Source of the DNA: Patescibacteria group bacterium
GTDB taxonomy: Bacteria > Patescibacteriota > Patescibacteriia > Buchananbacterales > UBA6539
Assembly (NCBI GenBank): GCA_041662625.1
Contig: JBAZSB010000001.1
Coordinates: forward strand, 855,710-919,709
Direction: 5' to 3'
DNA: 64,000 bases
Shown in pieces: positions 15,660 through 42,391 of the stretch (position 1 is its first letter; the number at the start of each line of letters is the position of its first letter). The notes beneath the pieces are model-generated. The model was given only the letters and a program-made list of their open reading frames with translations. It was not told where the DNA came from and searched no databases. A program made the position numbers and the translations under genes.

Positions 15660-15684
15660 AGCTACGAACAATGAACTAAGAACT

Positions 15685-16200: not shown

Positions 16201-16280
16201 ATTAGGGAGTAGGTGGTAGGTTGTAGGTTATTAGTTCAGCCTAGCACCTAAATTCCTAGTACCTAATTTCCTAACTTCCT

Positions 16281-17354
16281 ATGAATAACAAGATAAAAAA
16301 ACTTATTGCCAAAAGCCGGGAAGTAATTTCGGATAGCGCTTTGGATAATGGCGCCATTGTGGCGGCTAATTCGGATAAGCCTTATTACCCACGCAAAGCC
16401 CGAGATTATCACTATGTCTGGCCCCGGGATGCCGCCTATATCTGTGTTGCCGCCAAACTGCTTGGCTTAAACAAAATTCAGGAACCATTTTTCGCCTGGC
16501 TTGAGGAAAGGCCGCAGGATTTTAAAAAGGAAGGCAAACTTTTTGGTAACTACTCGGTTAATGGCCCCCATAAAGTTAAACAATTCCAGCCGGATCAAGC
16601 CGGGGCAATGCTTTGGGCAATCTATAATTTTTATCAAGAGAATTTAAGTGGGGCGCAAAAGCAAGAAATTTTAATCCGCCGCTTGGCCGATGGTTTGACT
16701 GATGACTGGCAGGACAGATATTTTTTTACCAATACCGTTGATTTGTGGGAAGAAAAAAATCGGCAGACTTCGACGCAGGTGGAAAATAATCATACTTACT
16801 CCCTGGCTGCTTGTGCTAGCGGCCTAATTACCGCCGCCAAAATTTTTAAAGGTAAAAAATGGGAGGAAGCAGCCCAGCAAATGATCAAACAAATTAATGA
16901 GGCTTATCGAGTGGATAAAAAAATTTTTGTGAGAAACCATGGTAAAATTGACGATCTTAATATCGACGCTTCACTTTTAGGCCTAGTTTATCCTTTTGCT
17001 GTCATTAAAGCCAATGATCCCAAAATGATTAATACCGTCAAACAAATTGAAGAAAAAATTGTCACCGGTGGTGGGGTCCACCGTTATCAATTTGATTATT
17101 ATGATGGCGAGGGCTCAGCCCAAGAAGGTGGCGGCGCTTGGCCGATTTTAAACTTCTGGCTGGCGATTTACTTTGTTTTAGCCGGTGATAAAACTAAAGC
17201 GAAAAAATATTACAACTGGGTAATTGACCGGGTGGGTGATGACTGTTTAATTCCGGAGCAGATTTTTGACGATTTCCGAACCGGAATTAAACCACTGGTT
17301 TGGTCACATGCGATGTTTATTATTGCTTCTCATTATTTAGGCGAACTAAAATAA
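16281..17354 (+). CDS. Glycoside hydrolase family 15 (glucoamylase/glucodextranase-like)
   Basis: YHYVWPRDAAYICVA is a GH15 signature; the alpha/alpha-toroid size fits. Confidence 0.65.
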   Translation: MNNKIKKLIAKSREVISDSALDNGAIVAANSDKPYYPRKARDYHYVWPRDAAYICVAAKLLGLNKIQEPFFAWLEERPQDFKKEGKLFGNYSVNGPHKVKQFQPDQAGAMLWAIYNFYQENLSGAQKQEILIRRLADGLTDDWQDRYFFTNTVDLWEEKNRQTSTQVENNHTYSLAACASGLITAAKIFKGKKWEEAAQQMIKQINEAYRVDKKIFVRNHGKIDDLNIDASLLGLVYPFAVIKANDPKMINTVKQIEEKIVTGGGVHRYQFDYYDGEGSAQEGGGAWPILNFWLAIYFVLAGDKTKAKKYYNWVIDRVGDDCLIPEQIFDDFRTGIKPLVWSHAMFIIASHYLGELK

Positions 17355-18844
17355 TGAAAGGAAAAAAATTACAAATTGTCCATATTGCTTCCGAAGTGGA
17401 GCCATTTTCCAAAACTGGCGGTTTGGCTGATGTGACCAGTTCCCTGCCCAAAGCCATAAAAAAAATCGGCCATCGGGTGATTGTTATTACGCCGTTTTAT
17501 AATGAATTAATTGATCCCAAAAAATATAATTTAAAATTAATCGCCGAAGAAATCGATTTACCATTAAGCGAAGGGGTGACAATGAAGGTTAATTTTTGGC
17601 AAGGCGAACTAGCTGAAGGCTTACCAATTTATTTTGTTGACAATAATAAATATTTTGGGCGGCGCAAAACTATTTACGGTTCGGAGCATGAAAATGCCCG
17701 ATTTTTCTTTTTTGATCTAGCCGCCTTAAAATTGCTGAAAATAATTGATTTTAAGCCGGATTTAATTCACTGCCATGACTGGCATGCCGGCTTGATCCCT
17801 TACTTTATTAAACGGCGCTTTAAAGATGATCCATTTTTTGAAAAAGCTACTACCCTTTTCACTATTCACAATCTTTTATTCCAGTTCGGCCATAATTGGT
17901 GGCAGGTTAAAGGTAAATTGCGCGACAATGGCACCACCCGCCTGCCAAAATTTGAGCACTCCGCCAAATTGGAAAGGATTAATTTTGCCAAAAGAGCCAT
18001 TATTAATGCTGATTTAATTAATACCGTTTCGGAACAATATGCCCAAGAAATTCTGACTAAAAATTTCGGCCAGGACCTTCATCGGATTTTAAAAAATAGA
18101 GAAGATCGAGTTTTTGGCATTGTTAATGGTATTGATTATAAAGACTATAACCCAAAAACTGATCCGGGCTTAGAACAAAACTACGACTTTAACTCTTTGG
18201 AAAAGAAATTAGAAAATAAAAAAGCGCTGCAAAAATATTTTAATCTGCCCGTTGACACTCACATTCCCCTTGTAGGCATGGTTACCCGGATTGCCGAACA
18301 AAAAGGTTTTGATCTACTGATGAAAATTATTGAGGATGTCTTAAAAATGGAAGTCCAATTCGTTATTATGGGTTCGGGCGAAAAAACCTATGAAAGTTTT
18401 TTTAAAAAAATTCAAAAACAATACCCCAAAAAAGTCGGCATTCATTTGGAATTTGAGGCAAAAAAAGCCACGCTGGTTTATGCCGGTACCGACATGTTTT
18501 TAATGCCCTCCCGTTTTGAACCCTGCGGCCTGGGCCAATTAATCAGCCTGCGTTACGGCTCGGTGCCGATTGTCCGCGCCGTCGGCGGCTTGGCCGATAC
18601 GGTAACCAATTTTAACCCCCAAAGGAAATATGGTAATGGCTTTGTTTTTGACAGCTATAATCACCGATCATTATTAATTGCCATTGTCCGGGCAATAGAA
18701 ACTTATAACCACCGCGAAGTTTGGCAAGCACTGGTTAAAAAAGGCATGCAGCAATCTTTTTCCTGGGAAATCCCCGCTAAAAAATATCTGACTTTATACC
18801 GCAAAGCAATTAAACAAAGGCAGTCTAATGCTAATAATAAATAG
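17354..18844 (+). CDS. glgA: Glycogen (starch) synthase, GT5
   Basis: KLQIVHIASEVEPFSKTGGLADVTSSLPKA is the canonical GlgA N-terminus; the ATG at 17354 overlaps the GH15 stop (TAATG). Confidence 0.85.
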   Translation: MKGKKLQIVHIASEVEPFSKTGGLADVTSSLPKAIKKIGHRVIVITPFYNELIDPKKYNLKLIAEEIDLPLSEGVTMKVNFWQGELAEGLPIYFVDNNKYFGRRKTIYGSEHENARFFFFDLAALKLLKIIDFKPDLIHCHDWHAGLIPYFIKRRFKDDPFFEKATTLFTIHNLLFQFGHNWWQVKGKLRDNGTTRLPKFEHSAKLERINFAKRAIINADLINTVSEQYAQEILTKNFGQDLHRILKNREDRVFGIVNGIDYKDYNPKTDPGLEQNYDFNSLEKKLENKKALQKYFNLPVDTHIPLVGMVTRIAEQKGFDLLMKIIEDVLKMEVQFVIMGSGEKTYESFFKKIQKQYPKKVGIHLEFEAKKATLVYAGTDMFLMPSRFEPCGLGQLISLRYGSVPIVRAVGGLADTVTNFNPQRKYGNGFVFDSYNHRSLLIAIVRAIETYNHREVWQALVKKGMQQSFSWEIPAKKYLTLYRKAIKQRQSNANNK

Positions 18845-18846
18845 CC

Positions 18847-21072
18847 ATGATTAAATGGGTTAATTTTTTACATATCTACCAGCCGCCCTACCAAGAACTG
18901 GGATTAATCCAAACTATCGCCCGCGAAAGTTATTGGCCGCTGATTGAAACTTTGAAAGGGAACAAAGAAGCTAAAATTACCTTAAACTTTTCCGGCTGTC
19001 TTTTGGAACACTTGCATAATGTCGGCGAAGAAAAATTAATCGAGGAATTTAAAAATCTGGTGGCGGCTAATCAAATTGAATTAGTCGGTTCCGCCCGCTA
19101 CCACCCAATCCTGCCGCTTCTGCCGACCAAAGAAATTAAAAGGCAAATTTTTCTTAATGAACAGATTTTAAAACGGGATTTTGACCAATACTACAAACCG
19201 ACTGGCTTTTTTCTGCCGGAGATGGCCTATAGCTTAAAAGTAGCAAAAATCATCAAAGAGTTGGGTTATAAATGGATAATTATTGACGAAATCGCTTACC
19301 AGGGACAATTGGGTCTGGTTGATTTTAATCATAAATATAGAATTAAAGGGGTGGGGTTAAACGTGGTTTTTCGCAACCGCAGTATTTCTAAAACTTTCGT
19401 GCCGGAAAAAATTATTGAATTGGCCAAAAAAAGCAACCCACCGGCTTACATTGTTTCCGCCACTGACGGCGAAATGTACGGCCATCACCATCATGATGGT
19501 CAAAATCTTTTTGAGGAAGCCTTAAAAAATCCTCAGATAAAAACTTTAACCATATCAGAATATCTTAATTCATTACCGGCCAAATCAGAACTGATTAATC
19601 CCCTCAGTTCCTCTTGGGAAAGTATACCCCAGGAGCTGAAAAGAAAATTGCCTTTTGCCCTCTGGCAGGACCCAAAAAATAAAATTCACCAAAATCTCTG
19701 GGAACTGAGAAAAATTGCCATTCGCTTAATAAACAAAAGTAAAGAAGAAGGGACTAATTATGATTGGGCAAGACATCATCTTGATCGCGGACTAGCCAGT
19801 TGCGCTTGGTGGTGGGCGGCGGATAAAAAATTGGATATTTTCAATTTTGTAACTTGGAATCCCGATACCATCGAAAAAGGAATTAGGGAATTAATTTCGA
19901 GTATCCGGTCATTAAAAAATGTCTCCCAGAAAACTAAGTTAAAAGCCGAAAAATACTACCATCTTCTGATTAAAGAAATCTGGAAAAAACACTGGAAAAA
20001 ATACCACAAAACCCAAACCGCAGAAACAAAAATGCCAGCGGAAATCAGACGAGGGCTTTCTTTATTAAATCAAAATTCCTTGATTGAACTTTTTCAAAAA
20101 AAATTACCGCCTGAACTGATCGGCAACGAAAAAATCGACTATATCGCCATTAAAGTCTTCAAAGAAAAAATTGGCCGGACCTCTTTTTATCACATTGTCG
20201 GCCGCTACCGCCTCCACTTCAAAAATAATAAAATTAAGCCGCTGACTATTTTTTGTAATGCCAATTCCAAAGAATCGCGCCAAGGCGCTTTTTTGGCCAT
20301 GCAATATCTTTGGGAAAATAATTCCTCCTGGGGCAGGCTAAAATCACCCCGGCCACTTTTTTATAATAAAAAACTGAAAGCCATGTTTTATCTTGAGGCT
20401 TCAGGCAAAAATCTTTACCATTATCTGATTAACCCGCAGACTGAATTCAAAAAACTGGAGCATATCGTTGAACTGACGGCTCGATGGCTTGGCCGTCTTC
20501 ATTCCCTGCCCACAATCGGAATTATCAATTTCAATCCAATCCAAAGCAAAGTGGCAACGGTTTTGCCCGGACCAAAAAAATTCCTAAAAATTATTGAGGA
20601 AAAACATTCCCAATACCCAAAATATTACCAATGGACCAATGAGCTATTCAATAAAATCAACGAGCTGGAGAAAAAAAATAAGAACAAAAGAAAATATATT
20701 ATCCACGGCGATATCCATCCGGAGAACGTCGTCTATAATGAAAATAAAGATACTTTATACCTGATCGATTATACGGACTGCTGCCTGGCAGATTTCACCC
20801 GCGACTTAGGCAATTTCCACCAGCAATTAGGCTATATGGCTCAAAATCATCTAACGCCGGAGCAAATTGAACAGCTCCAAAAAGTATTTCTTGATTCTTA
20901 CCTCCGGGCCAGAAATATGAAACTTTCCGCTCAAGATAAAAAGAATTTTGAATTATACAAAGCCTGGACGGCTTTACGTAGCGCCATTTTCTTTTTAACC
21001 ATCCCGATGTTTGATCGGCCCCGGGCCGACGCTTTATTCATTGAAGCCCGCGCTTATCTGAAAAAAACATAA
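18847..21072 (+). CDS. GH57-family alpha-glucan enzyme fused to a C-terminal APH/Mak-like phosphotransferase domain
   Basis: N-terminal LHIYQPPYQ and GFFLPEMAY (GH57 HQP and G-x-WLPE motifs). C-terminal IIHGDIHPENVV and LIDYTDCCLADFTRDLGNF (protein-kinase-like phosphotransferase motifs). Confidence 0.6.
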   Translation: MIKWVNFLHIYQPPYQELGLIQTIARESYWPLIETLKGNKEAKITLNFSGCLLEHLHNVGEEKLIEEFKNLVAANQIELVGSARYHPILPLLPTKEIKRQIFLNEQILKRDFDQYYKPTGFFLPEMAYSLKVAKIIKELGYKWIIIDEIAYQGQLGLVDFNHKYRIKGVGLNVVFRNRSISKTFVPEKIIELAKKSNPPAYIVSATDGEMYGHHHHDGQNLFEEALKNPQIKTLTISEYLNSLPAKSELINPLSSSWESIPQELKRKLPFALWQDPKNKIHQNLWELRKIAIRLINKSKEEGTNYDWARHHLDRGLASCAWWWAADKKLDIFNFVTWNPDTIEKGIRELISSIRSLKNVSQKTKLKAEKYYHLLIKEIWKKHWKKYHKTQTAETKMPAEIRRGLSLLNQNSLIELFQKKLPPELIGNEKIDYIAIKVFKEKIGRTSFYHIVGRYRLHFKNNKIKPLTIFCNANSKESRQGAFLAMQYLWENNSSWGRLKSPRPLFYNKKLKAMFYLEASGKNLYHYLINPQTEFKKLEHIVELTARWLGRLHSLPTIGIINFNPIQSKVATVLPGPKKFLKIIEEKHSQYPKYYQWTNELFNKINELEKKNKNKRKYIIHGDIHPENVVYNENKDTLYLIDYTDCCLADFTRDLGNFHQQLGYMAQNHLTPEQIEQLQKVFLDSYLRARNMKLSAQDKKNFELYKAWTALRSAIFFLTIPMFDRPRADALFIEARAYLKKT

Positions 21073-27021: not shown

Positions 27022-27738
27022 ATGGCAAACAAAATCATCAAAAAATATAAGGTAACAAAAAAAGGTCTTGGCGGTACTATAGACAGACTAGCTGATGATT
27101 TATTACCTTTTGTGGCCAATGGCACAATTATCAACGGCGGCAACTTCCAAATCAGAGAAGGCATCTATAAAACTCATTATCTCGCCACCGCTACTTTTGA
27201 GGCTGCAACTTTATTGTATAAAAAATCTAAGACAAAAAATAAAAAAGTAACTCTGTCTTTTCTGATTGATAACTTCAGCATCCGCAATAAGGGCTTTAAG
27301 ATGCCAAAAGAGTACCTGAAAATTCAAAAAAAGTATAACATCAACCCTAAAAAAATTTTATATTTTAAAGAAAACCAACTTAGAAACCGAGCAGCTAGGA
27401 TTTTACTTAAACAACTTACCAAAAAAGAAGTTAACCAAGGTAGTATATTCATAAAAAGTAAACTACCGAAACAAAAGTTTGAAGTCGCAAGAATACATAA
27501 AATGCTTAAAATTTTTACACCACTTGGAACAGCACTATTGGCTCAACAACTTTTTGATAGTGAAAAACAAGGAAATAAAGTTGCCGTCAATTTAATGCAT
27601 GAAGGTTCTTATGAATCTAAGGGTGGTGCCAATGCTTTTGTTTATCACTTACTTGGCGGCAAAATGAAAGTGTTAAATGTATACTTTAGAGAAAAGGCAA
27701 AAAAGATTGAAATTGAGGTTACTTTTCATGATAAATAA
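27022..27738 (+). CDS. Hypothetical protein
   Basis: 238-aa ORF, Lys-rich, no recognised motif. Confidence 0.3.
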   Translation: MANKIIKKYKVTKKGLGGTIDRLADDLLPFVANGTIINGGNFQIREGIYKTHYLATATFEAATLLYKKSKTKNKKVTLSFLIDNFSIRNKGFKMPKEYLKIQKKYNINPKKILYFKENQLRNRAARILLKQLTKKEVNQGSIFIKSKLPKQKFEVARIHKMLKIFTPLGTALLAQQLFDSEKQGNKVAVNLMHEGSYESKGGANAFVYHLLGGKMKVLNVYFREKAKKIEIEVTFHDK

Positions 27739-27759
27739 GTAGGCGGCCAAAAACTCCAT

Positions 27760-27895
27760 CTAACACGTTTTATGTGGCTCGCCCTTTATTAAGAAATTCA
27801 GCTCGCCTACATCGCTCGTTTGTTTGTGTGGTTGCGCATCCGCGCAATTGTACCACACCACAAACGTCACGACGTCACATAAAACGGTAACGTTA
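27760..27895. mobile_element. MITE-like inverted-repeat element, family B copy 1
   Basis: 5' CTAACACGTTTTATGTGG ... 3' CACATAAAACGGTAACGTTAG form terminal inverted repeats around an internal GC-rich stem. The element is shared with 28256-28425. Confidence 0.5.
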
Positions 27896-27978
27896 GGTGA
27901 AATTGACTTTCCTAACTTAAAGAAAAAAGCCCGCCGATCAGAGTCCGTCGAGCTTGTATAATTGCATGGTACGAAAAA

Positions 27979-28167: not shown

Positions 28168-28255
28168 CTCACACCTCCTTTACCATGTTGGTACTTAGCT
28201 GAAGTTAATCACAAAATACCACTCTTGTCAACTATAAAACGGAAGGTCAATATCA

Positions 28256-28425
28256 CCTAACACGTTTTATGTGGTTCCCCTCTCGACTCACTTAAATTAA
28301 CCTGAAACATCGCTCGAGGTTCACCCAAATCGCTTGTCGTCTTAGGTGGTTGACTCCGTCAGATTATACCACCACGACGACTGCGCGACGTCACATAAAC
28401 CGGTAACGTTGTCGGAAATTGGGTT
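28256..28425. mobile_element. MITE-like inverted-repeat element, family B copy 2
   Basis: Same termini as copy 1. The internal stem differs but keeps base-pairing (GTCGTCTTAGGTGGT / ACCACCACGACGAC). Confidence 0.5.
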
Positions 28426-28479
28426 GTTTTCCCCAACCACTATATACTATATAATCCACTTATAATTACTTAAATTGCT

Positions 28480-29094
28480 ATGGAACAAAAAAACAATGTA
28501 TGGACCATTACCCTCGCCATCATCATTGCTGCAGTTATTGTCGGCGGTGGATTTTATTATTGGCAACAATCACAGTTAGAATTAATGGATGAAGCGATTA
28601 CAGATTTAAAAAATGAAAATCAGGCCCTAACAAATAAGGCGACTCCAATAGAAAATGAAAATAATAATATTAGAATAAACCAACTCTTAACTTTAGATGC
28701 TAGTAGCACGTTATGTACTAAAAGTCCAACTACAGAATCAAGTGATATTGGTGGAGATTATACTATCTATCCGGTAGCAGATGAATACAAAACTACAGCT
28801 GACGATTATCATAATATTGCTGGTTTATTTACTGCTGCTGCTTGCGGTAAAGCACGCCTAAATGAACTTTTTGGTTCAAAAACTTTTCGCGATGTCGCAA
28901 TATTTACCCAAGATCCTAGCAGCAGTTTAATTGAGTACTTAAACAAAAATGGCTTTGCGTGCGATGATGATAAAATACCAGATAATCGTTGCAGTCGCTG
29001 GCATAATAATGGCCCAGTTCCCCTTGAGGTCCTGGTCGGGCTTAGAGAGTGGGCTACAATGATATACGGCTCAGATTGCACAGATTGCGGATAG
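28480..29094 (+). CDS. Hypothetical membrane-anchored Cys-rich protein
   Basis: N-terminal TM helix, coiled-coil segment, and 8 Cys in the C-terminal half. Confidence 0.3.
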   Translation: MEQKNNVWTITLAIIIAAVIVGGGFYYWQQSQLELMDEAITDLKNENQALTNKATPIENENNNIRINQLLTLDASSTLCTKSPTTESSDIGGDYTIYPVADEYKTTADDYHNIAGLFTAAACGKARLNELFGSKTFRDVAIFTQDPSSSLIEYLNKNGFACDDDKIPDNRCSRWHNNGPVPLEVLVGLREWATMIYGSDCTDCG

Positions 29095-29105: not shown

Positions 29106-29130
29106 ACAATCCGACAACACGTTTTGTGTG
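29106..29130. repeat. Solo terminal-repeat fragment of family B element
   Basis: CGACAACACGTTTTGTGTGCC versus the 5' TIR TCTAACACGTTTTATGTGGC. Confidence 0.35.
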
Positions 29131-29159: not shown

Positions 29160-29630
29160 ATGACTACAAAACTCACTTTAGCCGAAAAAAAACTAATTAA
29201 TCATGCAAAAAAAGCGGCAGTGAAATATAACAAAACCCGCAAATCTAAGGGCGGCATTGATACGCTGTATTCTTTTTTGTTGTCTGACAGCGGCAAAATC
29301 TATGACGGTGCCTGCCTGGAATCAAATGTTGGCCACGCGAATATCTGCGGCGAAAGACATGCGATTGCCAACCTGATTATGAATGAATCCTACAAAGCAA
29401 AAATAAAAAGCATAGTCGTGGCCGATCCGGTGCCGAAAGCCCAAAAGCACGGCACCATGCCTTGCGGCACTTGTCGGCATTTGATCTGGCAATTTGGCTC
29501 ACCAAAAACCACAGTACTTTGCCTGCAATATATCAAAAAAGAAAATGGCTGGATATTTCTGCCTAAAATTGAAAAATATACCATCAAGAAAATCTATCCC
29601 AATGCTTACGAACCGGTAAAGTGGGACTAA
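29160..29630 (+). CDS. cdd: Cytidine deaminase, tetrameric (Cys-ligand) type
   Basis: CGERHAI ... MPCGTCRHLIWQF is the zinc-binding C-[AG]-E and PCxxC signature of T-CDA / blasticidin-S-deaminase-like enzymes. Confidence 0.7.
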   Translation: MTTKLTLAEKKLINHAKKAAVKYNKTRKSKGGIDTLYSFLLSDSGKIYDGACLESNVGHANICGERHAIANLIMNESYKAKIKSIVVADPVPKAQKHGTMPCGTCRHLIWQFGSPKTTVLCLQYIKKENGWIFLPKIEKYTIKKIYPNAYEPVKWD

Positions 29631-29692
29631 TTTATTCACCAGCAACACACCACACGCTTTATCCGGTTCGCGCTTGCTAAATAAAATTATTT

Positions 29693-30202
29693 ATGCAGAT
29701 AAAACGATTGAATGCCAATCAAATAATCACGCTTACTGACTTTCCTGTTTACAACGAACAGATATTGAAAATATTTTTTCTGATATTTAGAAAAAAATGT
29801 TCCAAAATCATTCCACCTTGCCCTATAATGGCCATATCTTTAGTGGTTCCTTATTTCTCCGGCAAACTAAAAATAGTTTTTTCTAAATTTGCAAGTCGAA
29901 ACCCCCAAGCCAAATATTTTTTACTCGATGGCAGTCACAAAACGACCGCGGCGACACTAACTGGATCAAAAATCGCCGTGATGATCTTTCAAAACAACAA
30001 AGACATACAAATAGCGAAAAACATGGTAAAAACTGGTGATTTATTTAGCTTAATGGTAGACAATACCATTAAAGATAATGCCATTGAATTAAAACGTCAT
30101 TTCAACAAGAAAAAATGTTTTCAAACAGTAGAGGAAAAAACTAAATTAATGGTAAAGAAGAAAGTTATTCCCCAATACATGATTAACTACTATAACAGGT
30201 GA
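29693..30202 (+). CDS. Hypothetical protein
   Basis: 169 aa; weak LLDGSHKTTAA resemblance to the ParB/Srx-fold motif; unassigned. Confidence 0.25.
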   Translation: MQIKRLNANQIITLTDFPVYNEQILKIFFLIFRKKCSKIIPPCPIMAISLVVPYFSGKLKIVFSKFASRNPQAKYFLLDGSHKTTAATLTGSKIAVMIFQNNKDIQIAKNMVKTGDLFSLMVDNTIKDNAIELKRHFNKKKCFQTVEEKTKLMVKKKVIPQYMINYYNR

Positions 30203-30261
30203 CATTTTATCAGATTCGCGAGCTGAATAAAATTTTAACCTGCAAGAACTAAGCAAATGAT

Positions 30262-30699
30262 ATGAAAGTAGGAAAAGACTATATTGGTGTTGGTTGCGGC
30301 GCCATTATAATAAATGACAAAAACGAAGTATTGTTAATGAAACGGGCCAAAGATTCCCGGGTAGATGCCGGAATGTGGTGTCGGCCTGGCGGCAAAGTCG
30401 AATTTGATGAATCAGCACCTGAAGCGGTCGAAAGAGAAGTTAAAGAAGAAACCGGCCTTATAATAAAGGTAATTCGAACTTTAGATTTTAGTGAAAAAAT
30501 ATCTGAAGATAAAACCACCCACTGGGTTTCTTTGGGTTTTTTGGCCAAACTTATTTCCGGAGAACTTAAAAATGTAGAGCCTGATAAACATGATGAGATT
30601 AAATGGTTCCCGCTAAATAATCTGCCAAATGGTCTTGCGGAAAATACGAAAAAATCTATTGATTTTTACTTAACACGAGCAGCCGGTTCGCATAATTAA
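30262..30699 (+). CDS. NUDIX hydrolase
   Basis: Nudix box GGKVEFDESAPEAVEREVKEETGL. Confidence 0.85.
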   Translation: MKVGKDYIGVGCGAIIINDKNEVLLMKRAKDSRVDAGMWCRPGGKVEFDESAPEAVEREVKEETGLIIKVIRTLDFSEKISEDKTTHWVSLGFLAKLISGELKNVEPDKHDEIKWFPLNNLPNGLAENTKKSIDFYLTRAAGSHN

Positions 30700-30706
30700 T
30701 CGGGCT

Positions 30707-31204
30707 ATGAGCTTTTACATAATAATCCGTGGACCACTTGGCTGTGGAAAATCTACAATATCTGAAAAATTATCTAAAATTTTAAACGCGGAATACTTTG
30801 CCGTGGATAGAGTCTTAGATGAATACGATTTAACCAAAGATAAAGAAGATGGGTATATCTCGCAAAAAAGCTTTATCAAAGCAAACGAAATAATTACCCA
30901 AAGGGCTGAAAAAATTTTAGCTAATAATCGTTCAGTAATATTTGACGGTAATTTCTACTGGAAATCGCAAGTTGATGACCTGATTAAAAGACTTGGTTTC
31001 CCACACTATGTTTTCACTTTAAAAGCGCCTTTGGAAATCTGCATTGAACGAGATAGTAAAAGGGATAAAATCCACGGCAGTGATGCGGCAGAAGCAGTCT
31101 ACAAAAAATCAACTGAGTTTGATTACGGGATAGTCGTTGATATATCTAAATCTTTAGATGAAGCCGCAAGAAAAATTATTTCTCATTTACCTAAGTCCGA
31201 TTAA
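30707..31204 (+). CDS. P-loop NTPase / small nucleoside(nucleotide)-kinase-like protein
   Basis: Walker A IIRGPLGCGKST; 165 aa, the size of a shikimate/gluconate/deoxynucleoside-kinase fold. Confidence 0.5.
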   Translation: MSFYIIIRGPLGCGKSTISEKLSKILNAEYFAVDRVLDEYDLTKDKEDGYISQKSFIKANEIITQRAEKILANNRSVIFDGNFYWKSQVDDLIKRLGFPHYVFTLKAPLEICIERDSKRDKIHGSDAAEAVYKKSTEFDYGIVVDISKSLDEAARKIISHLPKSD

Positions 31205-31233
31205 TTATTTAACGCGCTCACCCAAATAAAATT

Positions 31234-31629
31234 ATGCTTACAAAAAATGATAAAAAATTAATAAAAGAGGCAAAAGCTCTCGTCAGAGCGAAAAAAATTC
31301 GAGGCGGGGCCACAAAAGAAGTCGGCTGTGTTTTGCTGACTGCAAAAGGGAAAATTTTTAAAGGCGTTTCTATGGATTTGGCGTGTGGCATTGGATTTTG
31401 CGCAGAACATACTGCCATCTCCGCCATGATCACATATACTAACGAAACCCATATTAAAACTATAGTAGCCCATAATAATAAAAAGGTTATCCCGCCTTGC
31501 GGTCGATGCCGAGAACTGCTGAACCTGATTGACAAGAAAAATCTTGAGACCGAAGTAATAATTTCCGATAATAAAAAAATTAAATTACAAGAGCTTTTGC
31601 CTTTTGCCTGGGATGTTAAAAGAGGATAA
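31234..31629 (+). CDS. Cytidine deaminase / blasticidin-S-deaminase-like, second paralog
   Basis: GFCAEHTAI ... PPCGRCRELL; 131 aa. Confidence 0.7.
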   Translation: MLTKNDKKLIKEAKALVRAKKIRGGATKEVGCVLLTAKGKIFKGVSMDLACGIGFCAEHTAISAMITYTNETHIKTIVAHNNKKVIPPCGRCRELLNLIDKKNLETEVIISDNKKIKLQELLPFAWDVKRG

Positions 31630-31664
31630 CATTTTTTTATTCTTTATTAATTAATCAAAAAAAT

Positions 31665-32006
31665 ATGTCGGATCTTACATTTAAAGAAGTGATACAAAAA
31701 ACCAACGAGGTTATTAAGGCCTTTCAAGAAGTCGAGCAACGTAAATGGGGCATTGAGGGTAATATGATTGAACTTACAAAACAGATAGGCGAACTTGGCA
31801 AAAACGTCATGATGATAGAGAATTACTACCTGGCTGAGAGAAAAAATGATCCAAACTACAATACGGCCTCAAAAGAAGAGATTGGCAACGAGCTGTCTGA
31901 CATATTTTTTATACTTATCAGGATTGCAAATCATTATGGGATTGACCTTGAAAAAGTACACCTAAAAGAATTGGAAATTGCCTTAACTTCACTGAAAGGA
32001 AATTAA
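31665..32006 (+). CDS. MazG-like nucleotide pyrophosphohydrolase
   Basis: All-alpha, 113 aa, with EExxE-type metal motifs (KEEIGNELSD). Confidence 0.5.
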   Translation: MSDLTFKEVIQKTNEVIKAFQEVEQRKWGIEGNMIELTKQIGELGKNVMMIENYYLAERKNDPNYNTASKEEIGNELSDIFFILIRIANHYGIDLEKVHLKELEIALTSLKGN

Positions 32007-32032: not shown

Positions 32033-32530
32033 ATGCTAACGGGGAAAAATAAGATGAGAAAAATATTTTACTTTATTATTGGTTTATTATTAGCAATTCC
32101 GACAGAATCTTTTAGATTTTTTATAGTGGAAAAACGGCCAGCCCCGTGGATATCAATGACAATCGCCTATATAATTCTGCTTGGGATAGGCTACGTTGCT
32201 TCAAAATACATCAAAAATAATCTCATCTACTACATCATCTTTGGAATTTTTGGACTATTCATTGAAGTATTTGTTTGGAAAGTGCTCCCCCAAATTGCTG
32301 CCGTTGGGATCTTGGGCTGGATAATGTGGTTTAGTTTCTGGGGATCGCTATTTTTGATCCCAAGGCTGTATCTTAAAGGTGAACTGCATTCACCCACCAT
32401 AATATTTTTTTGCGGTTCCCTGATATTTTTCATACTATTTTATTTGACCACAAAAAATACTGGGGCGGGTGGTTTGTTTTTTACTAGTTTAAACCTTCCG
32501 TATTTCTTATGGCATTTTAAACATAAATAA
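32033..32530 (+). CDS. Polytopic membrane protein, unknown
   Basis: 165 aa with 4-5 TM helices. Confidence 0.35.
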   Translation: MLTGKNKMRKIFYFIIGLLLAIPTESFRFFIVEKRPAPWISMTIAYIILLGIGYVASKYIKNNLIYYIIFGIFGLFIEVFVWKVLPQIAAVGILGWIMWFSFWGSLFLIPRLYLKGELHSPTIIFFCGSLIFFILFYLTTKNTGAGGLFFTSLNLPYFLWHFKHK

Positions 32531-32548
32531 AATTATTCTAATTAAACT

Positions 32549-33037
32549 ATGACATCAAAACAATTTATTGAGGGACAATTGAAGGGTTGTAAACAAAACC
32601 GTTGCGAGGATACTTGCTGCGATGATGACCAAGTTGAGGAATGGGTAAATGAGTATTTTGCTTTCCACGAACGACTCAAAGACTATATCACCTCATTAGG
32701 AATTAAGATAAAATTTATAAAGGACAGAGTTCAATTTACAAATTGTTCAGATGGCAAAAAATGTAAATTTCTAATACACTCCTTAAATAAGGACATTGAC
32801 CCCAGACCAATCGACTGTAAAATATATCCTTTCTGCGTAGACTGGGATTCAATCGATTTTAATGAAAAGATTGTAAGGTTATATTATTGGGATAATTCTT
32901 GTCCTTTGGTCAAAAGTAAATCTATTCCTAACGATTTCAGAAAAGAAGTTGAGGCTATAATTAGACGTGATTTTGCGGTATTATTCTATGGCGCCAGATT
33001 TAAAGTAAAATTCATTAATAAAGTATATAAGGGATAA
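32549..33037 (+). CDS. Cysteine-cluster protein (YkgJ/UPF0153-like Zn/Fe-chelating motif?)
   Basis: CKQNRCEDTCCDD plus further Cys pairs. Confidence 0.3.
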   Translation: MTSKQFIEGQLKGCKQNRCEDTCCDDDQVEEWVNEYFAFHERLKDYITSLGIKIKFIKDRVQFTNCSDGKKCKFLIHSLNKDIDPRPIDCKIYPFCVDWDSIDFNEKIVRLYYWDNSCPLVKSKSIPNDFRKEVEAIIRRDFAVLFYGARFKVKFINKVYKG

Positions 33038-33058
33038 TTTTATTACTAACAAAACCAG

Positions 33059-37663: not shown

Positions 37664-38818
37664 TTATTGTTTGATCGGCATGATGATATAAAGATAATCA
37701 CTACCTTTACCTGCTGGTTTTAGAACACAAGGACTGCTGCTATCAATCACACTAACTTCCACTTGTTCAGTACTAATATTTTGTAGCCCATCTAAAAGAT
37801 AACGATAATTAATAACGATGCTGTTATTGTCACCAGACAGTTCCCCACCCAGCCGAGAAATATTTTCTCCCAGTTGATTATTGGCTGAAGAAATAGTGAC
37901 TTCTTTTTTTTCTGGATTAACTTCTAAACTAACATCATAAATTCCGCTGCGGGTAAAAAGACTGGTGGTTTTGGTGGCGGCAATAAATTCCGAAACACTT
38001 AAAGTCGCTTTGGTGTTAGATTGCTGGGGAATAATTTGTTGGTAATCGGGATACTGGCCTTCCACCAAGCGAGAAATTAATTCGATATTTCCTAAAATAA
38101 ATAAAATTTGATTTTCCGCCAGATAAATTTCCACTTCTTCAATTTCGGAAATTGCCGCCGGGTCTTTAAAACTCCCTAAAATCCGCTGGAGTTCCTGCAA
38201 GGTCCGGGTGGGGACAATTACTCTTTGGGGAATACTGCTTGATTTTTTGGCTAAACTGACTGATTTTTCCGCTAACCGATAACTATCGGTAGCCGCTAAA
38301 ACTAAAGAATTACCCACAAAATTAAACAAGACCCCGTTAATTTCCGGCCGGGTTTCACTGATTGAAACGGCAAAAATTACCTGGTTAATTGCCTGGCGTA
38401 ATTTTTGGCTGGATAAAACATAGGGATTTTTTTTGTTGATCTGGGGAATTAAAGGAAAATCAGTGGCGGGCTGACCTTTAATTTTAGTTGAATTATTCTT
38501 GCAGCGAAGACTCAAACTTTGGTCCTGTCCTTCTTTGATTTCTTTTGCCACCACCAAATCAACTCGTTCTTTGGGCAGGAGCCCAACATAATCAGCTAAA
38601 AGTCGGGAGTGGATGGTAAAATCACCTTCTTCTTCCACCTTCCCCCGAATAATACAACTAACGCCAATTTCTAAATTTGTTGCCGAAAGTTTAATAGTAT
38701 TTTCTTGGGCTTGAATTAAAACGTTGTTTAAAATTGGCAAGGCCGTATTTTTTGAAGCGATATGGCTGACAACAAACAAGCCTTGATTTAAGTTTTCTTG
38801 GGTGCAGGATATTTTCAT
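37664..38818 (-). CDS. dnaN: DNA polymerase III beta sliding clamp
   Basis: MKISCTQENLNQGL ... ALPILNNVLI; 384 aa; adjacent to dnaA. Confidence 0.85.
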   Translation of the reverse strand: MKISCTQENLNQGLFVVSHIASKNTALPILNNVLIQAQENTIKLSATNLEIGVSCIIRGKVEEEGDFTIHSRLLADYVGLLPKERVDLVVAKEIKEGQDQSLSLRCKNNSTKIKGQPATDFPLIPQINKKNPYVLSSQKLRQAINQVIFAVSISETRPEINGVLFNFVGNSLVLAATDSYRLAEKSVSLAKKSSSIPQRVIVPTRTLQELQRILGSFKDPAAISEIEEVEIYLAENQILFILGNIELISRLVEGQYPDYQQIIPQQSNTKATLSVSEFIAATKTTSLFTRSGIYDVSLEVNPEKKEVTISSANNQLGENISRLGGELSGDNNSIVINYRYLLDGLQNISTEQVEVSVIDSSSPCVLKPAGKGSDYLYIIMPIKQ

Positions 38819-39099
38819 AACTTTTAGTTTATATATTTATTAATAATATTAATAAGGGGGGTGGATAAGTGGGAAAGATTAAAATTTATTTTAATTTAGT
38901 AATTTTATTAAGGTCAAATTTTTCAAAAGTTGGGGAAAGACTTGTGAATAAGGTTGTGGTAACTTCCACCCTTATTTTCAGTTGATTTTTTTCCACCACT
39001 ACCCTTAAGTTTGTCCGGTGGGTTTTCCTAAAAGTTACCCCCACTAGCCTAAAAATTATCAACAGCTTTCAGATCCTAAAATAGCTTTTATACCCTTGA
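38819..39099. promoter_or_regulatory. Candidate oriC / DnaA-box cluster (dnaA-dnaN intergenic)
   Basis: AT-rich with DnaA-box-like 9-mers at 1 mismatch or fewer: GGTGGATAA, TGTGAATAA, TTATCAACA. Confidence 0.5.
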
Positions 39100-40464
39100 T
39101 TAGATATAAAGTTTTTCTCTAATCAGTTTGATATCCTGATTAATTTTTTCATCCTCGTCGATTGCTGTAGTGATCTTAAAGTGGGCATGCATGGCAGTGG
39201 TGTGATCGCGGTTACCAATTTCTTGGCCAATGGCTGGATAAGAGCTTCTTAATTCCTCGCGCATCAAATACATCACAATCTGTCGGGGTAAAGCCAGATT
39301 TTTTTTGCGGCAGGCACCCAACAAATCTTCTAGTTTGATATCATAAAATTCCGCCACTAAATTGATAATTTGTTTAGGGGTGACTGATTTTCTGCGTTGG
39401 CCTGAGCTAATGGAAGTTAAAACCTTTTTTATGTTGTCTAAAACCGGTTCAGTTCCATTCAACTGATGGTAAGCAATGATTCTATTCAAAGCCCCTTCCA
39501 ATTCTCTAATGTTATTTTGAATATTAGCGGCGATATAGGTAATAATTTCATCATTAAGCTGATAATTTTTCTCTTTACATTTAGTCTTTAAAATTGCGGC
39601 CCGGGTTTCCAGGTCAGGAGCCGAGATATCAGCAATCATTCCCCATTCAAAGCGAGAGACCAAGCGGCTTTCCAGGGCCGGGATGGCCTTCGGTGGCCGA
39701 TCGGAAGTGATTACCACTTGTTTATTGGCTTGGTGTAAGTCATTGAAAGTATAGAAAAAGGCTTCCTGGGTTCCTTCTTTACCAGCCAAGAACTGGATAT
39801 CGTCCACTAATAAAACATCAACCGAGCGATAAATATTTTTAAAATGATCAGCTCGGTTACTGGAAATTGATTTAATAAAATCATTGGTAAATTTTTCGCA
39901 AGAAACGTAAAGGACTTTCTTTTGGGGGTTGGTCTGAAGAATTTGATTGCCGATTGCTTGGATTAAATGAGTTTTACCTAAACCAACGCCGCCGTAGATA
40001 AATAAAGGATTATAGACCTGCCCTGGTTTTTGGGCCACCGCCATACTGGCCGCTTGAGCTAATTCATTACCTTTACCAATGACGAAATTATTGAAAGTAT
40101 AACGGGGGTTAAGGCCGAATTCATTAAGGGCTGGTGCTTCTGTCCCTACCGTAAGCATTACTTTAGCGGTTTTTTCCTGGATTTTTTTCTCAGTTTGTTC
40201 CTCTTCAGCTTTAAATTTCGTTTCCACTTGGTAAATAATGATTTTTATTCGATTATTGGTAATTTTTTGTAAAGCCCGAAGAATAGCAGAGTGGTACTTC
40301 TTTTCTAGCCAAGCCTTGGTAAAGGTATTAGGTACGCCAATAGTAATAGTTTCTTCTTGATAAGAAGAAATAAAGGTATTTTTGAACCAAGTAGTAAAAT
40401 TTGCTCGGCTAAGAGTCAATTCCAGTTCACCCAGAGTCGCTTGCCAAATTTTTTGCTCCTCCAT
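39100..40464 (-). CDS. dnaA: Chromosomal replication initiator DnaA
   Basis: GGVGLGKTHL (Walker A), DDIQFLAGKE, and the C-terminal DnaA signature QEIGNRDHTTAMHA. Confidence 0.95.
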   Translation of the reverse strand: MEEQKIWQATLGELELTLSRANFTTWFKNTFISSYQEETITIGVPNTFTKAWLEKKYHSAILRALQKITNNRIKIIIYQVETKFKAEEEQTEKKIQEKTAKVMLTVGTEAPALNEFGLNPRYTFNNFVIGKGNELAQAASMAVAQKPGQVYNPLFIYGGVGLGKTHLIQAIGNQILQTNPQKKVLYVSCEKFTNDFIKSISSNRADHFKNIYRSVDVLLVDDIQFLAGKEGTQEAFFYTFNDLHQANKQVVITSDRPPKAIPALESRLVSRFEWGMIADISAPDLETRAAILKTKCKEKNYQLNDEIITYIAANIQNNIRELEGALNRIIAYHQLNGTEPVLDNIKKVLTSISSGQRRKSVTPKQIINLVAEFYDIKLEDLLGACRKKNLALPRQIVMYLMREELRSSYPAIGQEIGNRDHTTAMHAHFKITTAIDEDEKINQDIKLIREKLYI

Positions 40465-40788
40465 TTTTTTGGTTTTTTAATTTCTTAAATTATAATCAAA
40501 GTTTTTACTTGGGGTTTTTGGTGACCATCACATTATAGCATAAACTATTTATCCCCAACACTAGCTTTGTCTAATGATAATGTTAATAAGCTGTTGATGG
40601 AATGTGTATAATAATTTAACCCTTTTAAAGATTTTGGTCAATCCCCTACCCCTAGATTATTTTTGATTTATTTCAGCTATTCCCTTTGACGTTTAAAGGA
40701 AATTCTGATATTATAAATGGGTCAATCCCAAAATAATTCAGTAAAATGGGAAATATAATAATTAAAAAAGGGTAATTTTTAACGAGAT
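40465..40788. promoter_or_regulatory. dnaA upstream region / second oriC candidate (rpmH-dnaA intergenic)
   Basis: AT-rich; TTATCCCCA (1 mismatch to the DnaA box); direct repeats GGTCAATCCC twice; gene-strand polarity switches here. Confidence 0.45.
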
Positions 40789-40926
40789 ATGCCAAAAAGA
40801 ACTTATCAACCCAAGAAACGTCGGGCTAAAAGGAAACATGGTTTCCGGAAAAGAGCTGCCAGTGCCAGCGGGCGTAAGGTTTTGAAGCGTCGGAGAGACA
40901 AAAAGAGAAAAAAGTTGTCTCTTTAA
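40789..40926 (+). CDS. rpmH: 50S ribosomal protein L34
   Basis: [45 protein letters not shown] (not in ORF track; 45 aa). Confidence 0.9.
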
Positions 40927-40998
40927 AGGTACCCCGTTAGAAATTTAAGAAAATAACGGGATAACTTTAAATATTGCCGGTGTTTCTAACGGGATTAT

Positions 40999-41340
40999 AT
41001 GTTAGCCTTTAGAAGTCGTTTAACTAAAGAGAAAGATTTTAAAAAGATTAATAGGCTCGGCCGGCCTTTTTTTTCTCCGGGTTTCAGGGTGAAATTTTTG
41101 GCTAATAATTTAAAGTCAAGCCGTTTTGCCATCGTGATTTCGACCAAAGTGAGCAAAAAAGCCACCCAGCGCAATCGAACTCGGCGCCAACTCCAGGAGA
41201 TTATCCGGTTGAATCAGACCAAAGTTAAACCAGGTTATGATATTGTCATTTCTGTTCAGCCCCAGGTCTTGGGTAAAAGTTATCAGGAATTAGAGGCAAA
41301 AATTTTTGCCGCATTAAACAAAAGTAAACTTTTACAATGA
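40999..41340 (+). CDS. rnpA: RNase P protein component
   Basis: [11 protein letters not shown] ... [13 protein letters not shown]; conserved position after rpmH. Confidence 0.85.
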
Positions 41341-41591
41341 CTTTTTTTTCGGCTCAAATTAGATTTTTTGTTTTACAACTGATTAGAATTTACCAGAAAA
41401 CCCTATCTTTTGATCATGGGATTTTCCGTCACCTTTTCCCGAATGGTTTTTGTCGGTTTCACCCAACTTGCTCTGAATATGGTTATCAGGCAATTGAAAA
41501 ATACGGGGTAATTAAAGGTGGCAGGATGGCGCTTTGGCGGGTAATACGTTGTAACCCCTGGAATAAAGGTGGGTACGATCCGTTACGATAA
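41337..41591 (+). CDS. yidD: Membrane protein insertion efficiency factor YidD
   Basis: [33 protein letters not shown]. Confidence 0.9.
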
Positions 41592-41659
41592 CGAATAAGA
41601 AATTAAAAAATTAAAAAAATAAGGCATTTTCTTAACTTCTTAATTTTTTATTAATTACA

Positions 41660-42391
41660 ATGGCACAATTTTTCACCACAATTTTGTATCAACCCCTGCT
41701 TAATCTTTTGGTCTTTTTGTATAATATTATCCCGGGGCATGATTTGGGGTTAGCAATTATTCTTTTGACGGTTTTAATCAAACTTGTTTTATATCCCTTC
41801 GCCCGTCAGTCAATCAAGTCACAGAAAGCTTTACAAGATTTACAACCTAAAGTCGAAGCCTTAAAAAAACAATACAAAGACGACAAGGAAAAAATGGCTA
41901 AAGAGATGATGGTGCTTTATAAGGCAGAAAAAGTTAATCCCCTTTCTTCTTGCCTACCTTTGTTAATCCAGCTGCCATTTTTAATTGCAGTTTATCAAGT
42001 GTTTCGGACTGGTTTAGATTCCAGCAGCTTAAGTCTGCTTTATCCTTTTGTTCAAAACCCCGGTCAGCTTAATGCCATTTCTTTTGGTTTTCTTGATTTA
42101 GCCAAAGTAAACTTAGTTTTAGCCGGTCTAACCGGTTTGGCTCAGTTTTGGCAAACCAAAATGCTGATGGCCAAAAAGCAGCCGAAGATTGAAGGAGCCA
42201 AAGATGAAAATATGATGGCGATGATGAATAAGCAAATGCTTTATTTTATGCCGGTTTTCACCGTCATTATTGGAGCGAGTTTGCCCGCCGGGCTGGTGTT
42301 ATATTGGTTAGTAATGACGGTTCTCACCGCCTTGCAACAACTGCTAATGTTTAGACATAATAAAAAACAAGAGGCCGAAGCCAAACCATGA
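41660..42391 (+). CDS. yidC: YidC/Oxa1-family membrane protein insertase (short form)
   Basis: GLAIILLTVLIKLVLYPF ... VNPLSSCLPLLIQLPFLIAVYQVF. Confidence 0.9.
   Translation: MAQFFTTILYQPLLNLLVFLYNIIPGHDLGLAIILLTVLIKLVLYPFARQSIKSQKALQDLQPKVEALKKQYKDDKEKMAKEMMVLYKAEKVNPLSSCLPLLIQLPFLIAVYQVFRTGLDSSSLSLLYPFVQNPGQLNAISFGFLDLAKVNLVLAGLTGLAQFWQTKMLMAKKQPKIEGAKDENMMAMMNKQMLYFMPVFTVIIGASLPAGLVLYWLVMTVLTALQQLLMFRHNKKQEAEAKP

Follow-up and report, generated by a model that had tools for sequence, protein, structure and literature searches.

A probable lineage-specific nucleotide salvage and sanitation gene block in a Patescibacteria genome, arranged around a recurring ParB/Srx-fold protein and P-loop kinase

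Introduction

Do six small, consecutive genes for nucleoside- and nucleotide-handling proteins in a bacterium of the candidate phyla radiation (CPR) make up one conserved system, or did they come to lie side by side in a single lineage? The question is raised by positions 29160-32006 of a 64,000-nucleotide stretch (the window; positions 855,710 to 919,709 of contig JBAZSB010000001.1) of a Patescibacteria (CPR) metagenome-assembled genome. The block encodes two zinc-dependent deaminases (CDA1 and CDA2), a small ParB/Srx-fold protein (UNK), a NUDIX hydrolase, a P-loop kinase and a MazG-like protein. We suspect, with a probability of roughly 0.6, that it is a lineage-specific and probably co-transcribed set for salvage and nucleotide pool sanitation, arranged around a core of UNK and kinase, often joined by a MazG-like protein, that recurs in other genomes. 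It does not appear to be a dedicated conserved system; we read it as a juxtaposition of independently distributed small nucleoside and nucleotide enzymes in a region that is variable and holds many small genes. Salvage genes in CPR bacteria, which depend on salvage, are patchily distributed and bear the mark of lateral transfer (PMC7304191).

Composition of the block

Six co-directional open reading frames (ORFs) were confirmed at 29160-32006 on the + strand, separated by gaps of 62, 59, 7, 29 and 35 nt. Their products are identical to the NCBI proteins MFA6255236-241.

CDA1, 29160-29630, + strand: 156 aa, divergent zinc-dependent deaminase of the tetrameric cytidine deaminase (T-CDA) class
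UNK, 29693-30202, + strand: 169 aa, small stand-alone protein of the ParB/Srx (ParB-CTPase) fold
NUDIX, 30262-30699, + strand: 145 aa, MutT/NUDT15-like hydrolase
Kinase (KIN), 30707-31204, + strand: 165 aa, AAA_33/AAA_18/KTI12-PSTK-like P-loop kinase
CDA2, 31234-31629, + strand: 131 aa, zinc-dependent deaminase like blasticidin S deaminase (BSD)
MazG-like, 31665-32006, + strand: 113 aa, all-alpha protein of the NTP pyrophosphohydrolase fold

An earlier reading of this DNA from its letters and ORF translations (the sequence-only reading) had called the same six co-directional genes at the same coordinates, and only its gaps of 8-60 bp differ from the 7-62 nt measured here. All of its fold guesses agree with Pfam, NCBIfam and PDB searches and, for UNK, with an AlphaFold2 (AF2) model searched with Foldseek. 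This includes the weak ParB/Srx-like motif that it had seen in UNK, which is backed by the AF2 model and 29 consecutive matches to ParB/Srx-fold structures, and its label of "CDA/BSD-like" for the second deaminase, since CDA2 carries both the BSD-type PCGRCR motif and a C-terminal Trp. The presence of five nucleotide-handling folds among six consecutive genes is improbable by chance, according to a rough estimate rather than a computed value.

Relatives do not share the block

The six-gene block was found in none of the relatives sampled, which share only single genes with the window, at 83-91% nucleotide identity and in other contexts. The locus with the closest UNK (L094, 90% amino acid identity) is organized as NYN-UNK-(gap)-dn162-162aa-GreA and is devoid of CDA1, NUDIX, the kinase, CDA2, the MazG-like gene and dn165. 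UNK stands alone between homologs of YebC and PBP1a in L096, and in the loci with the closest CDA2 (85% amino acid identity) CDA2 is the sole gene in common with the window. Nucleotide homology detected by blastn is gene-sized, to within 10-35 nt: it covers UNK (29659-30197), CDA2 (31225-31639) and dn162 (32518-33044).

L124 is a true, close relative, whose core genes are 74-80% identical at the nucleotide level to window 14051-20673. The core genes upstream of the block (YebC, RuvC, glycogen genes, GalT, ROK and PBP1a) are syntenic with this locus. Where the window has an 83-nt spacer (16199/16245 junction), an island of 5.5 kb with about nine small genes is inserted in L124 (2105-7614), and 166 bp from the 3' end of the upstream RuvC-like gene are duplicated alongside it. 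Variable islands are thus where these small genes are found, and we consider the block to be a lineage-specific mosaic.

Among the genes of the L124 island are those for an HExxH protein, dn162, Cys-rich secreted proteins, a truncated CDA2 and a methyltransferase. The Cys-rich, 162-aa protein dn162 (window 32549-33037) has no Pfam, PHROG or PADLOC match. Copies with 84-88% nucleotide and more than 90% amino acid identity occur in L083 (10001-10489), L094 (2658-3146) and L124 (3387-3872). It is thus present in at least three unrelated contexts, namely between the ATP synthase beta and epsilon genes, after UNK, and in the 5.5-kb island. Homology stops within ~30 nt of the ORF, so that dn162 behaves like a mobile single gene.

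The sequence-only reading had suspected an accessory region, which fits the failure of relatives to keep the block. It had also named two observations that would speak against it, conserved core synteny in related genomes and a kinase clustering with housekeeping nucleoside kinases. The block is missing from the sampled relatives, and the likeness of the kinase to dNK, Udk and Cmk is limited to the P-loop. As neither observation was made, the salvage and sanitation reading survives only as the default.

These results bear directly on the idea of a conserved housekeeping pyrimidine-salvage operon, in which cdd paralogs, a nucleoside kinase and house-cleaning hydrolases would be kept together as core synteny. 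Such an operon would suit the reliance of CPR bacteria on salvage (PMC7304191), the NCBI annotation of both deaminases as cytidine deaminase, and the tight spacing of co-directional genes. However, the block is lacking in every relative examined, for which reason we rejected this explanation and consider it extremely improbable. Neither deaminase reaches the cutoffs for Cdd, the kinase is dNK/Udk/Cmk-like in its P-loop only, and each of the six proteins is a singleton at 90% clustering, save CDA2, which has one near-identical mate (99%).

Two other origins were rejected. An integron-type cassette array was considered because of the gene-sized homology to relatives and the tight, co-directional packing. 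The gaps of 7-62 nt offer attC sites (~55-140 nt) hardly any space, if at all, and no integrase is nearby, a judgement made without attC models. As for a phage or prophage origin, IMG/VR, with its 2.9 M viral contigs, contains no relative of the kinase or UNK family and a single distant match to CDA2 (42%), and the PHROGs matches are limited to generic NUDIX and kinase families.

UNK and the kinase recur as neighbours

To place the block genes in a wider setting, we compared gene neighbourhoods from three sides: within 10 kb of the kinase in 80 species-representative loci (~1.2 Mb of flanking sequence), around CDA2 relatives in 80 metagenomic loci (502 kb), and in eight independent UNK contexts (the window, L091, L094, L096, L179, L181, L183 and L185). 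UNK lies near the kinase in 6 of the 80 kinase loci, in convergent and in tandem arrangement, and is the only recurrent neighbour family of the kinase. Under a generous null, in which every genome is assumed to carry UNK, this linkage has P ~4e-6. The two genes are adjacent in L004, L008, L019, L020, L025, L055, L091 and L179. Seen from UNK, a kinase of the same family is adjacent or one gene away in three of the eight contexts (the window, L091 and the archaeal L179, with 48% identity). A MazG-like gene is also present in three, directly after UNK/kinase in L091 and L183 and two genes past the kinase in the window.

L091 is from Patescibacteria GCA_028710985.1 (UNK 76%), and its gene order is RtcB-390aa-UNK-kinase-MazG-like-PRTase-PRPP synthase (PRTase, phosphoribosyltransferase), without a CDA or NUDIX gene. 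Judging from gene order, the UNK-NUDIX-kinase-CDA2-MazG-like run of the window looks like the L091 trio with two enzymes interleaved. No NUDIX ortholog was found beside UNK or the kinase in the other loci, and the order UNK-NUDIX-kinase is present only in the source genome. The sequence-only reading overlooked that the conserved association within it is that of UNK with the kinase and, more loosely, with the MazG-like gene. The partner is missing in 74 of the 80 kinase loci and in 5 of the 8 UNK contexts, and UNK and the kinase are therefore not obligate partners.

In L019, L020 and L181, UNK or the kinase is flanked by aminoglycoside phosphotransferase (APH)-type kinases. The UNK homolog of L181 (1-6726) is part of an overlapping, co-directional run that encodes Exo_endo_phos, Metallophos, Pol-beta nucleotidyltransferase and HD proteins, two methyltransferases, a PEMT/ICMT-like protein, an APH and an acetyltransferase. 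Made up of enzymes that modify small molecules, the array recalls an island for resistance or detoxification.

UNK is a small ParB/Srx-fold protein

UNK has no Pfam, NCBIfam, PHROG, PADLOC or PDB match at the sequence level, even with a profile of its family, and PF02195 was not found in it. The family comprises 86 members, all from CPR and DPANN genomes. The AF2 model (pLDDT 96.3) consists of an N-terminal part of ~110 residues with the ParB/Srx fold and a C-terminal part of three helices. In Foldseek, the top 29 PDB matches are all to ParB (CTP-bound), Noc, KorB, sulfiredoxin or PadC, with probabilities of at most 0.93 and E values of only 0.03-0.7. On the basis of this model, we assign UNK to the ParB/Srx (ParB-CTPase) fold, at the level of fold only. 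The motif D79-G-S-H82-K-T-T-A86 is invariant in the family and probably occupies the position of the phosphate-binding motif of ParB-like proteins.

The ParB/Srx fold binds CTP, ATP or GTP, and is an enzymatic module in SerK, SbnI and Srx (PMC12704722; PMC5120207). In proteins of the SerK/SbnI/Srx type it is the module that binds ATP or NTP, with an enzymatic or a scaffold role (PMC12704722). UNK is like SerK, SbnI, Srx and PadC, which do not have the DNA-clamp architecture, in that it is small, stand-alone and carries a phosphate-binding motif of the DGxH[KR]xxA type. It differs from them in having no detectable Pfam or PDB sequence similarity, a different helical C-terminal part, a distribution limited to CPR and DPANN, and a linkage to AAA_33 kinase and MazG-like genes. 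A 2025 survey of the ParB-CTPase fold mentions neither MazG nor Patescibacteria (CPR) nor DPANN in its text (PMC12704722).

The kinase belongs to a conserved family shared with archaea

AAA_33 is the best full-length family for the kinase (50.9 bits), and its best PDB sequence match is the kinase domain of PSTK (2e-5). It carries a Walker A motif (RGPLGCGKST), D34, the FDGNFYW segment and an R115-D-xx-R119 lid. With PSTK, KTI12, gluconate kinase and adenosine 5'-phosphosulfate (APS) kinase it thus shares Walker A, a substrate-side Asp after strand 2, a Walker B-like strand of the hhhhDG type and the R-x-x-x-R lid. In contrast to PSTK and KTI12, it is devoid of a C-terminal tRNA-binding domain, and unlike all four it belongs to its own tightly conserved family of ~164 aa, found mainly in DPANN and Thermoplasmata. 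Foldseek comparison of the AF2 model (pLDDT 91) returned gluconate, APS, nucleoside monophosphate (NMP) and shikimate kinases, PSTK and chloramphenicol phosphotransferase, with no substrate class standing out; TM-scores to gluconate and APS kinases are 0.70-0.76. Matches to nucleoside kinase-type families involve only the P-loop (dNK 20.3 bits, residues 5-40; PRK E 0.041; Cytidylate_kin 0.006), and no NCBIfam equivalog cutoff is reached.

The kinase family is unusually conserved, with 883 homologs of ~164 aa at 67-84% identity. Archaea (Woese-, Pace-, Nanoarchaeia and Thermoplasmata) account for 61 of the 80 species-representative loci, and the closest match is a Woesearchaeota gene (76%). Across DPANN, Thermoplasmata and scattered CPR (L003-L082), members are 50-76% identical. 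Ranked by identity, bacterial members are mixed in among archaeal ones, which implies that a small enzyme under strong constraint has repeatedly been transferred between the domains.

Some homologs are longer. The one in L055 (6980-7864) has an extra N-terminal segment of 130 aa with a CX5RS motif and no Pfam match, and another (P0105) has an extra N-terminal segment of 115 aa with a weak HAD/LNS2 match (3.7e-5). A low-molecular-weight phosphatase identity for the N-terminus of the L055 protein was rejected, as the CX5RS motif stands alone and is without Pfam support. These segments hint, if weakly, at kinase-phosphatase bifunctionality in parts of the family.

Could the trio of UNK, kinase and MazG-like protein be the only functional unit here, one with no part in pyrimidine salvage? 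It would then act, for example, as an NTP-dependent kinase switch, or in RNA or metabolite end-healing or phosphotransfer, with the deaminases and NUDIX as passengers. The linkage statistics (6/80, P ~4e-6) would fit this, as would the contiguous trio of L091, which lies two genes downstream of RtcB and Archease. The best sequence relatives of the kinase, PSTK and KTI12, act on tRNA, some of its homologs have possibly phosphatase-like N-terminal domains (L055, P0105), and ParB-fold proteins are known to act as NTP switches and enzymes (PMC12704722). However, UNK and the kinase occur apart in most loci, a fusion of the two was not seen, and the evidence for phosphatase-like domains is weak. It would also have to be a coincidence that the adjoining deaminases and NUDIX fit the trio in theme. 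We regard this explanation as unlikely, though less so than the other alternatives to a salvage and sanitation set.

The deaminases are competent in appearance and divergent from Cdd

Both deaminases retain the three-Cys zinc site and the catalytic Glu (C63/E65/C102/C105 in CDA1; C56/E58/C89/C92 in CDA2), and these residues are conserved in the respective families. From their motifs, both look catalytically competent. CDA1 (C63-G-E65...P-C102-G-T-C105-R) scores 26.3 bits with PF00383, barely over the gathering cutoff of 25, and its best PDB matches are the mouse and human CDA (~1.5e-5). Its lineage is rare: of 1.84e9 representative clusters, 35 reach E ≤ 1e-10. The C-[AG]-E...PCGxCR core is conserved in this lineage, and a family-specific C-terminal tail (LYPxPY..WD) is present. 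CDA2 (C56-A-E58-H...P-C89-G-R91-C92-R-E...LLPxxW126) scores 35.7 bits with PF00383 and matches the T-CDA 2d30 (6.5e-12) and the BSD 1wn5 (1.3e-6). Its family is tight (~129 aa, 556 homologs at 57-85% identity) and has the invariant motifs CGIGFCAEH, PCGRCRE and LLPxxW, including R91 and W126. CDA1 and CDA2 are 36% identical over 107 aa (E 4e-10) and are therefore old, distant paralogs of different lineages rather than the result of a recent duplication.

With Cdd and BSD, both proteins share a single-domain fold of ~130-150 aa, the three Cys ligands and the catalytic Glu. They differ from Cdd in falling below the equivalog cutoffs, both for TIGR01354 (CDA2 58.6 and CDA1 42.0 against 113.65) and for NF004064 (57.9 and 40.8 against 74). 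CDA1 differs further through its own C-terminal tail and its rare lineage. The G-x-N-x-E-N segment contacts the ribose in the structures of the Bacillus subtilis and human CDA. In its place, CDA2 has G-V-S-M-D-L and CDA1 has G-A-C-L-E-S.

The features that CDA2 alone shares with BSD are PCGRCR and the C-terminal Trp. In BSD, Arg90 lies within PCGRCR and Trp128 within the C-terminal LLP..W. R91 and W126 of CDA2 align with them in an end-to-end alignment to the A. terreus BSD (30% identity, E 4e-12), made with a BSD sequence whose length of 130 and numbering agree with 1wn5. CDA1 reads PCGTCR and does not have the BSD-type motif.

These likenesses raise the question of whether the block serves to detoxify xenobiotics, nucleoside antibiotics among them. 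Cytosine-containing nucleoside antibiotics such as blasticidin S would be deaminated by CDA2 and perhaps also by CDA1. The kinase would act like chloramphenicol phosphotransferase and phosphorylate a toxic small molecule, and the NUDIX and MazG-like proteins would clear toxic nucleotide analogues. The BSD-type motifs of CDA2 and the replacement of the ribose-contact segment in both deaminases are in keeping with this. The kinase has weak similarity to chloramphenicol phosphotransferase (Pfam 1.5e-4; Foldseek 1qhs), and relatives of UNK and the kinase lie beside APH-family kinases, in L181 within the run of nucleotidyltransferase, HD, methyltransferase, APH and acetyltransferase genes. However, T-CDAs come slightly ahead of BSDs when the CDA2 profile is searched (57 against 39-45 bits), and the widespread CDA2 family is found without resistance-type neighbours. 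The similarity of the kinase is at the superfamily level only, and the block contains no efflux or regulator gene. A detoxification role is, in our estimation, quite improbable.

The NUDIX protein is intact and the MazG-like protein partly degenerate

The NUDIX protein is a clear member of its family (PF00293, 87.4 bits against a cutoff of 21.1; PDB 4dyw, 8.7e-23) and has an intact Nudix box, GKVEFDESAPEAVEREVKEETGL, which follows the pattern G44-x5-E-x7-R-E-V-x-E-E-x-G-L.

The MazG-like protein is more divergent. Its Pfam score is 20.4 bits against a cutoff of 27, and its PDB matches are 5ie9 (8.4e-6) and YpjD (2gta, 1.6e-4). It has the size, the all-alpha fold family and the second E-x-x-D motif of these two proteins, with E76-L-S-D79 intact. 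It differs from them in its first metal motif, of the type K-Q-x-x-E, and in staying below the Pfam gathering cutoffs. That first motif is degenerate, K-Q-I-G-E in place of E-E-x-x-E. The E-E-x-x-E motif is kept in 5ie9, in YpjD and in the MazG-like proteins of L183 and L091, and the protein of L032 has S-E-x-x-E.

The resemblance to AvcD is one of parts

The sequence-only reading had also seen in the adjacent kinase and deaminase an echo of the antiphage deaminase AvcD. AvcD/DcdV is a single polypeptide of ~532 aa with a dCMP-deaminase site of the H-A-E...PCxxC type and a 5' non-coding RNA (ncRNA) antitoxin, AvcI (10.1101/2021.03.31.437871). The system, known from VSP-1 of Vibrio cholerae, has in common with the block a P-loop kinase-type domain and a zinc-dependent deaminase of the cytosine family, and AvcD acts on the nucleotide pool. 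A split, AvcD/DcdV-like module for nucleotide depletion would consist of the kinase and CDA2, with NUDIX and MazG partners, and would deplete deoxycytidine nucleotides upon infection.

A few observations lean towards such a module. The two genes are 29 nt apart, the region varies between relatives, a structured repeat lies upstream of the block, NUDIX resembles the PADLOC candidate PDC-S07 (1.6e-18), and there is a weak PADLOC match of the kinase to VakA (1.2e-5, 24 bits). We judged the PDC-S07 match to be generic NUDIX similarity, and treated that to VakA, which was not traced in the literature, as superfamily-level noise.

The differences are substantial. AvcD is a fusion, whereas here the kinase and CDA2 are separate proteins of 165 and 131 aa. 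In place of the H-A-E of AvcD, the zinc sites of the two deaminases read C-x-E, as in the T-CDA/BSD class (C-G-E...PCGTC in CDA1, C-A-E...PCGRC in CDA2). No block protein matches the PADLOC dCTP-deaminase/AvcD model at E ≤ 0.1, and no AvcD entry is among the top 50 Foldseek matches of the kinase. Furthermore, kinase-deaminase adjacency is not conserved. A CDA was found within 10 kb of the kinase in 0 of the 80 kinase loci, even at E ≤ 1, and the kinase in 2 of the 80 CDA2 loci, on two near-identical contigs and 4.4 kb away. The 80 CDA2 loci contain no UNK, no MazG-like gene and, on clustering of neighbours, no recurrent partner, and among the sampled genomes the adjacency is present only in the source genome. 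The flanks (~14 kb upstream and ~10 kb downstream) are without defence, integrase or transposase genes, and the kinase and UNK are without relatives among the IMG/VR viral contigs (CDA2 has the single 42% match). We therefore rejected this reading on the missing fusion, H-A-E site, conserved linkage and PADLOC match, and give it hardly any chance of being right. The echo of AvcD is a resemblance of parts only.

As a candidate for the ncRNA of such a system, we considered the repeats upstream of CDA1. Two copies of a structured element of ~170 nt lie in the intergenic upstream region (27757-27913 and 28254-28430, + strand), and a third copy of its 15-nt box is present at 29116-29130, 30 nt before the CDA1 start codon. 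The element has a closing inverted repeat of 11 nt (CGTTTTATGTG / CACATAAAACG) and an inner hairpin that compensatory changes have preserved. The first copy folds significantly (z = -5.9) and the overall fold of the second is not significant (z = -0.9). No Rfam match was found over 27.7-29.2 kb at E ≤ 1, and the two copies are 0.7-1.4 kb upstream of CDA1 rather than 5' of the kinase or CDA2. Among 186 loci the element is unique to the source genome, being absent in all 184 loci from other genomes. The "family B repeats" of the sequence-only reading are therefore a local two-copy element with one additional 15-nt box, and not a dispersed family. The element is a candidate small RNA or regulatory element, with at most a putative tie to the block.

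Genomic setting

The genes dnaA, dnaN, rnpA and yidC are located at 37.6-42.4 kb, with dnaN and dnaA (- strand) diverging from rnpA and yidC (+ strand) at 37664-42391, and the cumulative GC-skew has its minimum at ~36-38 kb. From these positions, the block is ~6-10 kb from the replication origin. Every gene between 14949 and 36784 is on the + strand, and co-directionality is thus not specific to the block. The leftward replication fork would meet transcription of this 22-kb run, block included, head-on.

Downstream of the block are genes for small membrane proteins, dn162, Ser_hydrolase, an Idi-like NUDIX and a sulfatase-family protein. No integrase, transposase or recombinase is present among the ORFs annotated at 14.9-42.4 kb, and no defence gene within ~14 kb upstream or ~10 kb downstream of the block. 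There are no tRNAs in the window, and no Rfam match at the gathering threshold across its whole length. Directly upstream of the block, ORFs 27022-27738 (238 aa) and 28480-29094 (204 aa, with an N-terminal transmembrane helix) match no family in any of the libraries, and their only homologs are in the fetched loci of the same organism. They look like lineage-specific orphans.

No convincing terminator was found within the block (the sole + strand match falls within the coding sequence of CDA1), and promoter-like matches are about as numerous as in the background (34 against 26.5 ± 5.2). The scan is compatible with co-transcription of the block without being proof of it. The GC content at third codon positions (GC3) is 0.29-0.31 per gene against about 0.40, which, for genes this short, amounts to only ~2-3 standard deviations, and was for that reason not taken as evidence of transfer. 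Elsewhere in the window, 46000-52000 and 56000-58000 have a GC content of 0.49-0.53, compared with ~0.38 in the rest. PolA and a DHDPS-family gene lie in the high-GC stretch, and a 523-aa ORF at 45703-47274 (- strand) has no Pfam match.

Discussion

How would a salvage and pool-sanitation set of this composition work? Its nucleus would be UNK, as a predicted NTP-binding protein of the ParB/Srx fold, and the AAA_33 kinase, often with a MazG-like protein. The additions in this genome would be NUDIX between UNK and the kinase, the BSD-like CDA2 between the kinase and the MazG-like gene, and the rare CDA1 upstream. The block genes are most likely co-transcribed, and their products, possibly coupled physically or functionally, may jointly process scavenged and non-canonical pyrimidine nucleosides and nucleotides. 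CDA1 and CDA2 would carry out deamination, the kinase would phosphorylate, possibly assisted or regulated by UNK, and NUDIX would act as a pyrophosphohydrolase, together with the MazG-like protein if this is still active. The outcome would be salvage and pool sanitation in an organism unable to make nucleotides de novo.

Several points weigh against this proposal. The kinase is not recognisable as a nucleoside or NMP kinase, and cytidine as a substrate, and with it plain cytidine salvage, is not assured, because the G-x-N-x-E-N segment is missing and the Cdd scores are below cutoff. The MazG-like protein may be inactive or altered in metal binding, since two acidic residues of its first metal motif are lost. 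The synteny sample is also limited: most contigs are short, and L124 was compared without the region equivalent to the block. Finally, the thematic clustering of the six genes suggests a functional link, which is at odds with mere juxtaposition.

Beyond the salvage and sanitation set itself, the repeated adjacency of UNK and the kinase suggests a joint function in organisms dependent on scavenged nucleotides. We tentatively raise the possibility, with the odds against it, that UNK and the kinase, often with a MazG-like protein, form an undescribed nucleotide-processing or NTP-switch module that has been exchanged between CPR and DPANN and that has here recruited NUDIX and a BSD-like deaminase.

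From the perspective of defence gene discovery, the analysis removes a tempting false positive: a kinase beside a deaminase is no evidence of AvcD without a fusion, an H-A-E site or conserved linkage. The block instead provides an example of how nucleotide-handling sets in CPR bacteria may be built gene by gene, in variable islands, from families that are common to DPANN archaea. It also draws attention to two uncharacterised families, the 86-member family of ParB/Srx-fold proteins and the very conserved family of 164-aa kinases. If UNK and the kinase are a functional pair, they would provide the ParB-CTPase fold, the roles of which outside DNA segregation are just beginning to be mapped, with a new class of partner.

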